32,167 nucleotides of DNA from a phage: assembly GCA_021683455.1 (NCBI GenBank), contig GCA_021683455.1_3051.2; one strand, given 5' to 3'. Positions 3,819 through 8,936 of this stretch are shown in pieces. A model generated the notes under the pieces. It had not been told where the DNA came from. It was given only the letters and a program-made list of their open reading frames with translations, and did not search any database. Every line of letters begins with the position of its first letter. The stretch's first letter is position 1. Position numbers and translations under genes: made by a program.

Positions 3819-4349
<531 letters not shown>

Positions 4350-4353
4350 AGTT

Positions 4354-4384
4354 GTTTACTTTCTCCTAGAATTGTGATAGTATA
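4354..4384 (+). promoter_or_regulatory. early promoter-like element upstream of ip gene (GTTTAC 4354-4359; TAGTAT-like -10)
   Basis: Sequence pattern only. Confidence 0.4.
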
Positions 4385-4437
4385 TTCACAGTTGCTTGAA
4401 GAGACAAATTACTAATTAAAATATTTAAAGGAAACAC

Positions 4438-4707
4438 ATGAAAACATATCAAGAATTTATCACTGAAGCAGCTATTAATTCTCAAATTATTGCTGAATCT
4501 TTTACTGATCTTTTGAAATTTAAAAAAGGTCAAAAAATCACTGCTGTATTGGATGATGGTACAGAAGTTGAGATGGATGTACAGGGATATAATTATGCAG
4601 TAGATGGAAAACTGTATAATAAATCTCATGCTAAATTTGATTCATTTGACGACTTTGTTAATACAGTTGAAGATGAAAAAAACTCGTCGATCCATTGTAA
4701 CTGGTGA
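4438..4707 (+). CDS. internal head protein (IPII/IPIII-like) with capsid-targeting sequence
   Basis: N-terminus MKTYQEFITEA matches the conserved capsid-targeting sequence of T4 internal proteins; AAAGGAAA SD; T4 has ipIII/ipII at this position. Confidence 0.65.
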   Translation: MKTYQEFITEAAINSQIIAESFTDLLKFKKGQKITAVLDDGTEVEMDVQGYNYAVDGKLYNKSHAKFDSFDDFVNTVEDEKNSSIHCNW

Positions 4708-4912
4708 TGCTAAGGTTCTTATGGCACATGGTCATGAACGCATTCGCGCTAAACAGAATAAAATGGGTGAAGATAATTTTGCATTAGTTGGTTATCAATC
4801 TGGTAAACAAACCTATGGTTATCAGCGTACTGCTACCATGTATAATAAAAATGGTAAAATTGCCTTTGTAAATAGTAAAGGTTCTATTCAGTACGTTAAA
4901 TCGTTCAAATAA
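4673..4912 (+). CDS. basic 79-aa ORF overlapping the ip 3' end; separate gene or frameshifted continuation of the ip gene
   Basis: ATG 4673 in +1 frame relative to 4438 ORF, across an A7 run (4676-4682); no capsid-targeting sequence of its own; weak SD. Confidence 0.35.
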   Translation: MKKTRRSIVTGDAKVLMAHGHERIRAKQNKMGEDNFALVGYQSGKQTYGYQRTATMYNKNGKIAFVNSKGSIQYVKSFK

Positions 4913-5049
4913 TATGGGAACAGCCTGGACCTCATTTGAGGTATTCTCGCCAACCTGTGATAAGGTCGAGCCAAAGCGCGGTAATGGGTAATGCAGGAAT
5001 GGACAACTCATGTGCCATGGAATGGCCCAAAAACCTTAAGAGAAATAAT

Positions 5050-5592
5050 ATGAGAACATTTTTAACTGGCCCGTATCTATCCCTGATGAATGCTTTTACA
5101 CACCATTCTGATGCTAGAGTAGAAGAACTTTGTAAGAATGATTATCTTCCACCAATGGAAGATGTGCTCAAACAGTACTGCACACTTCGTATAGATGGTG
5201 GACGTCAATCCGGTAAATCAATTGCTGTGACTAACTTTGCCGCTAATTGGCTGTATGATGGCGGAACAGTTATTGTTCTTTCTAATACTTCAGCTTACGC
5301 TAAAATTTCTGCTGGCAACATTGAAAAAGAATTTTCTCGTTATTCTAGCGATGATATTCGATTCCGTTTATTTACTGATTCTGTCCGTAGTTTTATCGGT
5401 AATGAAGGTCATAAATTCCGTGGGTTATCGCTTTCTCGTATCTTGTACATAATTGACGAACCTATTAAAGCTCCTGATATGGATAAGATTTACAATATCC
5501 ATATTAAAACGGTACAACATTGTTGTCGAAGCTATAATGCTGAAACAGGTGAAACAGTTCGTCCTCAATTTTTTGTGATTGGAATGCAATGA
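5050..5592 (+). CDS. P-loop NTPase-like protein (vs.8-position ORF)
   Basis: Walker A-like GGRQSGKS and Walker B-like ILYIIDEP; start uncertain, frame open upstream to TTG 4936 through a GC-richer segment. Confidence 0.5.
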   Translation: MRTFLTGPYLSLMNAFTHHSDARVEELCKNDYLPPMEDVLKQYCTLRIDGGRQSGKSIAVTNFAANWLYDGGTVIVLSNTSAYAKISAGNIEKEFSRYSSDDIRFRLFTDSVRSFIGNEGHKFRGLSLSRILYIIDEPIKAPDMDKIYNIHIKTVQHCCRSYNAETGETVRPQFFVIGMQ

Positions 5593-5918
5593 TGACAGAC
5601 ACACAGCTTTTCGAATATCTCTATTTTTCGCCAAAAACTATTAAAAATAAATTGGTAAATCATTTTGAAATTTTGGCAAATAATAATATTTTAAGCGAAT
5701 TTTATCCCAAACAATACAAATTACAAAAAGGCGTATTCAAAGGATGCAGAGTTTTATGTACTGCTCCTAATGCACGGCTAATGAATAAAATTCCATATTT
5801 TACCATGGAATTTATTGATGGACCTTTTAAAGGACTAATCACGCAGAGTTTAATGGCATATGATTCTGAGCCGTTTTTAATTAAAGAACAATCTTGGATA
5901 AATTTATTTTCTAATTGA
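5589..5918 (+). CDS. hypothetical protein (vs.7-position ORF)
   Basis: ATGA overlap with upstream stop; 109 aa. Confidence 0.5.
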
Positions 5919-5925
5919 GGTTTAT

Positions 5926-6288
5926 ATGAAAGCATATCAAATTCTTGAAGGCACACATAAAGGCACTATTTATTTTGAAGATGGTATTCAAGCACGAATT
6001 ATTGTCTCTAAAACCTTTAAAGAGGACTCTTTTGTAGACCCAGAAATTTTCTACGGTTTGCATGCCCGTGAAATTGAAATTGAAACACAACCTACAGTTA
6101 AAATTGAAGGTGGTCAACACCTGAACGTTAACGTTCTGCGTCGTGAAACTCTGGAAGATGCAGTTAAGCATCCGGAAAAATATCCGCAGCTGACCATCCG
6201 TGTATCCGGTTATGCAGTTCGCTTTAACTCTCTGACTCCGGAACAGCAGCGCGACGTTATCGCTCGTACCTTCACCGAGAGTTTGTAA
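5926..6288 (+). CDS. autonomous glycyl-radical cofactor, GrcA/YfiD-like (T4 Y06I-type)
   Basis: C-terminal ~60 aa ([59 protein letters not shown]) matches E. coli GrcA C-terminus including glycyl-radical motif RVSGYAV; GAGGT SD. Confidence 0.85.
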
Positions 6289-6509
6289 TGGCAAAGATAA
6301 TTATTGAAGGTTCTGAAGATGTGCTAAATGCTTTCGCCGAGTGGTTTAGTAATTCAGGCGAACAGCAATTTAATGAAGCCTGGAATATGGGTGATATTGA
6401 TGGAATTTATCCTACGACAGAAATTTCTGTTCAAGGATATGGCATTCATGAACCTATTCGTTTAGTTGAATATGATTTATGTACTGGTGAGGAAGTCAAA
6501 TATGATTGA
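6288..6509 (+). CDS. hypothetical acidic protein (vs.5-position ORF)
   Basis: 73-aa ORF; start overlaps upstream stop (TAATG). Confidence 0.5.
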   Translation: MAKIIIEGSEDVLNAFAEWFSNSGEQQFNEAWNMGDIDGIYPTTEISVQGYGIHEPIRLVEYDLCTGEEVKYD

Positions 6510-6768
6510 AGATATTAAAGGTTATAAGCCACATACTGAAGAGAAAATCGGTAAAGTGAATGCTATCAAAGACGCTGAAGTTCGTTTAGGACTTATCTTT
6601 GATGCTTTATACGATGAATTTTGGGAAGCATTTGATAGCTGTGAAGACTATGAACTCGCGAAGAATTATGCTGAAAGCCTCGATCAGTTAACTATTGCTA
6701 AAACGAAACTCAAAGAAGCCAGTATGTGGGCTTGTCGTGCAGTGTTCCAACCAGAGGAAAAATACTAA
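6502..6768 (+). CDS. small protein; candidate Vs.4/Acb2-like cyclic-nucleotide-binding anti-CBASS protein (by position and size only)
   Basis: 88 aa from ATG 6502 overlapping upstream stop; fourth ORF upstream of vs by T4-style counting; Tyr8 and several Lys in N-terminal region; sequence identity not verified. Confidence 0.4.
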
Positions 6769-7046
6769 TGGCTCAATTAAGTGCAGGGTTTGGTTATGAG
6801 TATTATACTGCCCCTCGTCGTGTATCTGTCGCTCCTAAGAAAATTCAAAGTCTTGATGATTTCCAGGAAGTAGTCCGTAAAGCTTTCCAGGACTATGCAC
6901 GTTATCTTAAAGAAGATTCACAGGACTGTCTCGAAGAAGATGAAATTGCTTACTATGAGCAGCGTCTTGAACAGCTTAAAAACTTACATGAGGTTCGTGC
7001 AGAAGTTTCAAAGTCTATGAATAAATTGATTAGATTTAAAGAATAA
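6768..7046 (+). CDS. hypothetical protein (vs.3-position ORF)
   Basis: ATG 6768 overlaps upstream TAA; 92 aa, acidic helical. Confidence 0.5.
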
Positions 7047-7048
7047 CT

Positions 7049-7078
7049 GTTTACTTTTCCTCTTGACTGTGGTATAAT
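7049..7078 (+). promoter_or_regulatory. early promoter upstream of regB (GTTTAC 7049-7054; TGGTATAAT 7070-7078)
   Basis: Consensus -35, extended -10, 18-nt spacing. Confidence 0.8.
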
Positions 7079-7105
7079 TTTTCTATCAGTTAAGAGGAGA
7101 ATAAC

Positions 7106-7567
7106 ATGACTATCAATACAGAAGTTTTTATCCGTCGAAATAAGCTTCGTCGTCACTTTGAGTCGGAGTTTCGTCAAATTAACAATGAGATTCGTGAGGC
7201 ATCAAAAGCAGCAGGGGTCTCATCGTTTCATCTAAAATATTCTCAACATCTTCTTGATCGTGCAATTCAACGGGAGATTGATGAGACATATGTTTTTGAA
7301 TTATTCCATAAAATAAAAGACCATGTTTTAGAAGTTAATGAATTCCTGAGTATGCCTCCGCGTCCTGACATTGATGAGGATTTTATTGATGGAGTTGAAT
7401 ATCGTCCTGGACGTTTAGAAATTACAGATGGAAATCTTTGGCTTGGATTTACAGTTTGTAAACCTAATGAGAAGTTCAAAGACCCGTCACTTCAATGTAG
7501 GATGGCAATTATCAACAGTCGTCGTTTACCAGGAAAGGCTTCTAAAGCAGTAATTAAAACTCAATGA
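7106..7567 (+). CDS. regB: RegB sequence-specific endoribonuclease
   Basis: 153 aa matching T4 RegB size and N-terminus as I recall it (MTINTEVFIRRNKLRRHF...); AAGAGGAG SD; early promoter upstream. Confidence 0.8.
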   Translation: MTINTEVFIRRNKLRRHFESEFRQINNEIREASKAAGVSSFHLKYSQHLLDRAIQREIDETYVFELFHKIKDHVLEVNEFLSMPPRPDIDEDFIDGVEYRPGRLEITDGNLWLGFTVCKPNEKFKDPSLQCRMAIINSRRLPGKASKAVIKTQ

Positions 7568-7574
7568 GGTAAGC

Positions 7575-8120
7575 ATGAGAAAAGCACTACTCGCTGGTCT
7601 ATTGGCCATTTCTATGATGGCACATAGTTCCGAGCATACTTTCAGTAATGTCCAACTCGATAACATGCGTTACGCGTATCAATTCGGGGAACAGTTTTCT
7701 AAGGATGGAAAATATAAAACACACAAAAATATCCACAAGAGCGGATTAGGTCATATAATGGCTGCCATTTTATGGCAAGAAAGCTCTGGCGGAGTTAATT
7801 TAAAATCTAAACCAAAACATCACGCCTACGGAATGTTCCAAAATTATTTGCCTACTATGCGAGCGAGAGTTAAGGAACTTGGTTATAATATGACCGATGC
7901 TGAAATAAAAAGAATGTTGAATAAACGATCCAATTCAGCTTCCTGGGCGTACATTGAACTTTCTTATTGGTTAAATATACATAAGGGCGATATAAGAAAA
8001 GCAATATCCTCTTATAATTCGGGATGGAATGTTAAAGCAGGTTCTAAATATGCTTCTGAAGTCCTAGAAAAGGCTAATTACCTTAAAAATAATAAACTTT
8101 TGGAAATAGTAAATGACTAA
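7575..8120 (+). CDS. secreted lytic transglycosylase-like protein (vs.1-position ORF)
   Basis: N-terminal signal peptide MRKALLAGLLAISMMAHS; WQESSGG and YGMFQ motifs reminiscent of SLT-family transglycosylases. Confidence 0.55.
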   Translation: MRKALLAGLLAISMMAHSSEHTFSNVQLDNMRYAYQFGEQFSKDGKYKTHKNIHKSGLGHIMAAILWQESSGGVNLKSKPKHHAYGMFQNYLPTMRARVKELGYNMTDAEIKRMLNKRSNSASWAYIELSYWLNIHKGDIRKAISSYNSGWNVKAGSKYASEVLEKANYLKNNKLLEIVND

Positions 8121-8460
8121 AATTTTGGTTTTATGTATAGGATTAATTTCATTTTCTGCTTATGCGTCAGCAGATACATCATATACTGAAATTAGGGAGT
8201 ATGTGAACCGCACTGCAGCGGATTATTGTGGGAAAAATAAAGCATGCCAAGCTGAATTTGCGCAGAAATTAATATATGCATATAAAGACGGAGAAAGAGA
8301 TAAATCAAGCAGATACAAAAACGATACATTATTAAAACGATATGCTAAAAAGTGGAATACCCTAGAATGTTCAGTTGCGGAGGAAAAAGATAAAGCCGCT
8401 TGTCATTCAATGGTTGACCGTTTAGTAGATTCTTATAATCGAGGATTGAGTACTAGATGA
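8113..8460 (+). CDS. small secreted protein at the vs position (valyl-tRNA synthetase modifier in T4)
   Basis: 115 aa matches T4 vs length as I recall it; N-terminal signal-like segment; overlaps upstream ORF end. Confidence 0.5.
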   Translation: MTKILVLCIGLISFSAYASADTSYTEIREYVNRTAADYCGKNKACQAEFAQKLIYAYKDGERDKSSRYKNDTLLKRYAKKWNTLECSVAEEKDKAACHSMVDRLVDSYNRGLSTR

Positions 8461-8936
8461 TTATAAAATATATCAAGGGCGATATTGTCGCCCTCTTTCT
8501 TGAAGGTAATATTATTGCGCACGGGTGCAATTGTTTTCATACTATGGGTTCAGGCGTAGCGGGTCAATTAGCAAGAGCCTATCCCAAAATTTTAGAAATA
8601 GATAAAACCACTACTGAGTACGGTTCTCGTGATAAATTAGGCGATATGTCTATTGTTTTTAAACATAGTCCTACGGGATTTGGTATATGCTATAACCTGT
8701 ATACGCAATACGAACCAGGTCCTAATCTTGATTATGGTGCTTTAGTAAACTGCATGATAGAATTAAATCTACAGGCAGAAACCCTTTTGTTTAAACCAGT
8801 AATTTACATTCCGCGTATAGGTTGTGGTATTGCTGGCGGCGATTGGGATAAGGTTTCTAAATTAATCGACATGTTTACTCCTGATATTGATTTAATAGTG
8901 GTGGATTATGAAAGTACATTACCCACATCCGTTTGA
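8457..8936 (+). CDS. macro-domain (ADP-ribose binding/processing) protein (tk.4-position ORF)
   Basis: KGDIVALFLEGNIIAHGCNCFHTMGSGVAGQLA and IPRIGCGIAGGDW resemble macro-domain ligand-binding motifs (compare E. coli YmdB); ATGA overlap with upstream stop. Confidence 0.6.
   Translation: MIIKYIKGDIVALFLEGNIIAHGCNCFHTMGSGVAGQLARAYPKILEIDKTTTEYGSRDKLGDMSIVFKHSPTGFGICYNLYTQYEPGPNLDYGALVNCMIELNLQAETLLFKPVIYIPRIGCGIAGGDWDKVSKLIDMFTPDIDLIVVDYESTLPTSV

Follow-up and report, generated by a model that had tools for sequence, protein, structure and literature searches.

Introduction

The closest described system is Vs.4 (Acb2) of phage T4, which a genetic screen identified as responsible for the dependence of T4 on the Cap2 status of its host (PMC10097602). 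The Kd of T4 Vs.4 for 3',3'-cGAMP is ~30 nM, and the protein crystallizes as a hexamer holding three cGAMP molecules (PDB 7UQ2; Jenson et al. 2023, PMC10097602). In its pocket, Y8 and F82 make stacking contacts with the bases, and hydrogen bonds and salt bridges come from H11, K23, and R79; the mutations S74N, T12I, and A77I cause a loss of function, and mutating L29, A66, A73, and A77 abolishes both the hexamer and binding, whereas F33A merely destabilizes the hexamer and cGAMP is still bound (PMC10097602). The protein blocks CapV activation in vitro, and a T4 phage with vs.4 knocked out drops ~50-fold on a CBASS host in which Cap2 is mutated (PMC10097602).

The name Acb2 comes from Pseudomonas phage PaMx33, whose protein (p26; PDB 8H2J, 8H2X, and 8IXZ; Huiting et al. 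2023; Cao et al., PMC10312549) depends on Y11 and K26 and in addition binds cyclic trinucleotides via R67 and T74. T4 Acb2, which has D61 and T68, binds neither cA3 nor cAAG, and the same holds for its D61R mutant (PMC10312549). The Panoptes (OptSE) system employs 2',3'-c-di-AMP as a decoy nucleotide, and this defense is triggered when T4 Acb2 captures the decoy; the Acb2 alleles Y8A and F82C fail to trigger Panoptes, and T2, which probably has a disrupted acb2 allele, escapes it (PMC12657218).

Here, we describe a member of this family encoded in the window, by which we mean the whole stretch of 32,167 nucleotides of phage DNA that was analyzed. Judged by its similarity to known genomes, the window belongs to a T4-like (Tequatrovirus) genome: many Tequatrovirus phages match its first 25 kb at 96-97% identity, and identity reaches up to 99% in region 6000-7600.

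Results

The ORF under study (Table 1) encodes a protein with a calculated mass of 10.2 kDa and a pI of 4.7, which ends in AVFQPEEKY. We assign its start to the ATG at 6502 because a GAGG, an element that is the same in T4 and T2, precedes it by 9 nt, because T4 vs.4 as annotated and the chain of PDB 7UQ2 share their first Met with this ATG, and because the N termini of homologs read MIEDIKGY or MxIEDIKGY. A 100-aa version from the TTG at 6466, which figured in a program-made list of ORFs, was dropped in favor of this better-supported start. The gene is tightly packed between its neighbors, and the overlap of vs.5 with the start of vs.4 suggests translational coupling; vs.5 and vs.3 are context only, and vs.5 is no part of the sponge. 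Over positions 4300-8600, a scan for sigma-70 promoters returned 19 promoter-like sites against 16.6 expected in shuffled sequence, hence no excess, and a terminator scan of the same region gave a sole match inside the vs.4 ORF, on the minus strand.

Table 1. Coordinates of vs.4 and surrounding features in the window, with identity to the T4 counterparts
Feature	Coordinates	Strand	Identity to T4	Remarks
e	3855..4349			Lysozyme
Internal-virion-protein gene	4438..4912	+		Pfam DUF7412; split into overlapping ORFs 4438..4707 and 4673..4912
vs.8	4936..5592		77%	
vs.7			99%	
vs.6	5926..6288		98%	
vs.5	6288..6509	+		73 aa; upstream neighbor; T4 protein maps in two frames; TGA stop overlaps vs.4 start by 8 nt (ATGATTGA)
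GAGG	6489..6492	+		Candidate Shine-Dalgarno element, 9 nt before the vs.4 ATG
vs.4 (acb2)	6502..6768	+	95.5%	88 aa, ATG 6502, TAA 6766-6768; putative anti-CBASS cyclic-dinucleotide sponge (ORF translation, homology, residues)
vs.3	6768..7046	+	97.8%	92 aa; downstream neighbor; ATG uses the last A of the vs.4 TAA (TAATG)
regB			100%	
vs.1	7575..8120		100%	
vs			99.1%	
tk.4	8457..8936		58%	Macro-domain protein

Comparison of the protein with PDB sequences (phmmer) gave a single strong match, T4 Vs.4 (7UQ2), with 84 of the 88 residues identical and an E value of 1.2e-53, and PaMx33 Acb2 (8IXZ and 8H2J) came second but weakly (E value of 0.16, ~24-26% identity). The Pfam model PF24729 (Acb2_Tad1_hairpin) was matched over profile positions 1-58 of 58 with 71.2 bits (E value of 8e-20), well above its gathering score of 27 bits, and the PHROG match was phrog_717 (E value of 1.7e-31), a family that served Jenson et al. 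in collecting Vs.4 homologs (PMC10097602). By tblastn, the protein was found in 1232 of 50,697 phage records, nearly all of them from T4-like phages of enterobacteria; an ORF of Escherichia phage ES12 is 100% identical, and T4 vs.4 (AF158101.6) is 95.5% identical. A collection of 5.8 billion proteins contained 149 relatives, almost all of which carry PF24729, and alleles at least 98% identical to the window protein are present in hundreds of sequences. Homology to the characterized founder, T4 Vs.4, and the PF24729 and PHROG 717 models thus agree in placing the protein among the Acb2/Vs.4 sponges. On the strength of these alignments, the ORF is an intact ortholog of T4 vs.4 (acb2), and the feature is already known, being nearly identical to a protein characterized both structurally and genetically.

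An AlphaFold2 monomer model, computed from a 48-sequence alignment (pLDDT of 87.6, pTM of 0.71), consists of two helices, 13-46 and 50-81, with a short turn between them. In a Foldseek search of the PDB, the top matches were the chains of 7UQ2 (E value of 4e-11, TM score of 0.76-0.77, rmsd of ~4 Å), followed by PaMx33 Acb2 (8H2X and 8H2J; probability of 1.0, TM score of 0.73-0.75), and the remaining matches were generic helical hairpins with E values above 0.3. The model thus has the two-helix hairpin of ~90 aa seen in 7UQ2 and 8H2J. Its termini have low pLDDT values and perhaps become ordered only in the ligand-bound oligomer.

These results bear on a sequence-only reading of the window, which had proposed a Vs.4/Acb2-type protein from the size and position of the 88-aa ORF and had described T4 Vs.4 as a sequesterer of cyclic oligonucleotides that antagonizes CBASS. 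Its summary of the literature is correct (PMC10097602) and the ORF is real, as attested by the E value of 1e-53 to a solved structure and by the matches in 1232 phage records. The assignment is confirmed by the 95.5% identity, the PF24729 and PHROG 717 matches, the fold, and the residues described below; the alignment that had been suggested, with T4 Vs.4 and Acb2 structures, yielded 84 of 88 identities to 7UQ2, and PaMx33 Acb2, weak by sequence, was matched by fold.

The Pfam name also prompted us to consider Tad1 (Thoeris anti-defense 1), a hexameric sponge for immune nucleotides. We rejected this assignment, since the two share the Pfam Acb2/Tad1 hairpin domain but the best and all other significant matches of the window protein are Vs.4/Acb2, with no Tad1 structure among the significant sequence or fold matches.

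At the level of single residues, Y8, H11, T12, K23, L29, F33, L60, D61, A66, T68, A73, S74, A77, R79, and F82 are all present and the same as in T4. This set comprises the cyclic-dinucleotide pocket (Y8, H11, K23, R79, and F82, together with S74) and the hexamer interface (L29, F33, A66, A73, and A77), and the essential Y11 and K26 of PaMx33 Acb2 align onto Y8 and K23. Across 48 homologs, G7, Y8, P10, H11, K23, S74, R79, and F82 are invariant. At the positions equivalent to R67 and T74 of PaMx33 Acb2, the window protein has D61 and T68 and so falls outside the cA3-binding subgroup; because these are the residues found in T4, we predict that it binds cyclic dinucleotides and not cA3. Accordingly classed by sequence, it would belong with the dinucleotide-only T4 type rather than with the PaMx33/JBD67 type, which also binds cyclic trinucleotides.

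The window protein differs from T4 Vs.4 by four substitutions, L44F, N46S, C50Y, and F52L, which cluster within 9 residues. In the model, residues 44-52 would form the tip of the hairpin, with the pocket residues at the opposite, open end, where the N and C termini lie; in the hexamer, they may touch a neighboring subunit. One may ask whether these tip substitutions retune binding or recognition while cGAMP binding is kept, for instance so that less of the Panoptes decoy 2',3'-c-di-AMP is captured or a host factor that senses Acb2 is evaded. Such a shift would be in line with the divergence of vs.4 from T4, which exceeds that of most of its flanks (vs.3, regB, vs.1, and vs; Table 1), with the selective pressure that decoys are argued to put on Acb2 specificity (PMC12657218), and with the fact that some Acb2 homologs bind 3'cADPR instead (PMC12393519). 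The four positions all lie in block 34-65, which is hypervariable across homologs and contains indels: the mean column entropy of the 48-homolog alignment is 2.25 bits in this block versus 0.51 bits for residues 1-33 and 0.34 bits for residues 66-88. However, the published ligand-contact residues are all unchanged, the geometry of the model would put the tip away from the pocket, and Acb2 of Bas38, another Tequatrovirus, still triggers Panoptes (PMC12657218). Drift at the surface of a loop offers a simpler explanation, and we regard a shifted specificity as very unlikely. We likewise give little credence to the idea that the cluster reflects diversifying selection by decoy systems such as Panoptes or by a host sensor of the sponge; if this were true, the allele would differ from T4 Acb2 in its ligand selectivity or in its detection.

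Loss of the sponge function from a gene that is itself kept has been proposed for the acb2 genes of T2 and PaMx41, and close relatives carry natural loss-of-function alleles. T2 vs.4 (NC_054931, 15591..15890) occupies the same locus and is 93% identical to the window gene downstream of residue 9, but the loss of 2 nt from codons 7-8 (GGTTAT to GGAT) removes Y8, the residue that stacks on cGAMP, and the annotated T2 protein starts in another frame, without I5-Y8. This agrees with the literature, which takes the dinucleotide site of T2 Acb2 to be disrupted and the protein to be probably defective. Alignment with T2 led us to reject a disruption of this kind for the window allele, which is intact in codons 7-8 and of the T4 type. 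Although the same window also holds a frameshifted internal-protein gene, an inactive or decaying vs.4 is exceedingly improbable: the frame is full length with an intact start, Shine-Dalgarno-like element, and stop, every functional residue tested is conserved, ES12 has the identical protein, and hundreds of sequences have alleles at least 98% identical. Moreover, 8 codons differ synonymously from T4 and 4 non-synonymously, as would be expected of a gene still under constraint.

The surroundings of the gene are those of T4. According to the T4 annotation and to tblastn of T4 proteins onto the window, the order vs.8-vs.7-vs.6-vs.5-vs.4-vs.3-regB-vs.1-vs-tk.4 is kept and the lengths match as well, with the exception of vs.5 (73 aa versus 58 aa annotated in T4). 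As in the vs.4 locus of the Tevenvirinae, vs.5 precedes the gene and vs.3 follows it, with regB, vs.1, and vs farther downstream, and the earlier placement of the ORF in the vs.4 slot holds.

Several observations concern the neighboring genes. Divergence from T4 is mosaic, since identity drops to 77% in vs.8 and 58% in tk.4 but is 100% in the intervening regB and vs.1 (Table 1), a pattern that suggests recombinational replacement of single accessory genes. Vs.6 contains a glycyl-radical (GrcA-like) domain, Vs.1 a weak SLT transglycosylase domain and an apparent signal-like N-terminal segment, and Tk.4 a macro domain, and the Pfam search returned no match for Vs.3, Vs.5, Vs.7, and Vs.8; a Tex_N hit in Vs.3 was discarded as sub-threshold (18.6 bits versus a cutoff of 32). 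We also sought acb1 (57B) in the window, and synteny with T2 and T4 puts this gene past the left end.

Of 988 phage records that match vs.5, 987 contain the gene in its full 73-aa length. One base (at window position ~6337) is missing from vs.5 of the T4 reference AF158101.6, and the annotated 58-aa Vs.5 consists of two parts that match different frames, so that a frameshift or an error seems to be present in the T4 record. The vs.5 region of T4 is 1 nt shorter and followed by a 36-nt gap, unlike the overlapping arrangement of the window.

The stretch 4350..4936, between e and vs.8, holds a single internal-protein gene, whose product begins with MKTYQEFITEA and in this resembles T4 internal proteins. 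In T4, the counterpart of this stretch holds ipIII, ipII, and denV, all three absent here; T4 DenV (endonuclease V) gave zero tblastn matches across the 32-kb window. The arrangement e-ip-vs.8 is likewise found in phage KIT03, where the internal protein is encoded by a single 157-aa CDS. The gene is split in the window because of one extra A in a homopolymer near 4676-4682 (7 A versus 6 A in KIT03), and this frameshift could be a homopolymer sequencing error, a real pseudogene, or a site of slippage-prone expression.

Discussion

We consider it very probable that vs.4 of the window encodes a working Acb2/Vs.4 sponge that is limited to dinucleotides, as in T4, and that would form a hexamer, sequester 3',3'-cGAMP and related cyclic dinucleotides, block CBASS, and, as a side effect, make the phage visible to Panoptes. 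The gene itself, its homology and synteny with T4 vs.4, the predicted fold, and the conservation of residues are established, and from the characterized, 95.5% identical T4 protein we infer the hexamer, the ligand binding, the ligand range, and the anti-CBASS activity of the window allele. The resemblance to T4 Vs.4 is comprehensive: the two proteins share their length of 88 aa, the slot between vs.5 and vs.3, the modeled hairpin fold, the cGAMP-contact and hexamer-interface residues, and D61/T68, and they differ only at the hairpin tip. With PaMx33 Acb2, the window protein shares the fold and probably the mechanism of a hexameric cyclic-dinucleotide sponge, in spite of the low sequence identity.

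By analogy with T4 Vs.4, six copies of this acidic two-helix hairpin protein would build a hexamer whose three pockets are each situated between two subunits and each accommodate one 3',3'-cGAMP or related cyclic dinucleotide. Base stacking would come from Y8 and F82, and the phosphates and riboses would be bound by H11, K23, and R79, S74 being close by. The signal produced by the host CD-NTase would in this way be sequestered, a CBASS effector such as the phospholipase CapV would stay below its activation threshold, and, with the effector held off, the phage would complete its cycle. Since the Y8 codon is intact, unlike that of T2, the protein is also expected to set off the decoy-nucleotide defense Panoptes.

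The finding adds no new biology, and its value lies mainly in annotation, given that most GenBank records label vs.4 "hypothetical protein" despite its being a characterized anti-CBASS sponge. By analogy with T4, an intact vs.4 predicts that the phage would resist CBASS systems that signal through cGAMP and other cyclic dinucleotides. It also predicts sensitivity to Panoptes (OptSE), a defense that is set off by the capture of its decoy nucleotide by Acb2 (PMC12657218). Both predictions would be useful in picking T4-like phages for therapy or for defense-system screens.
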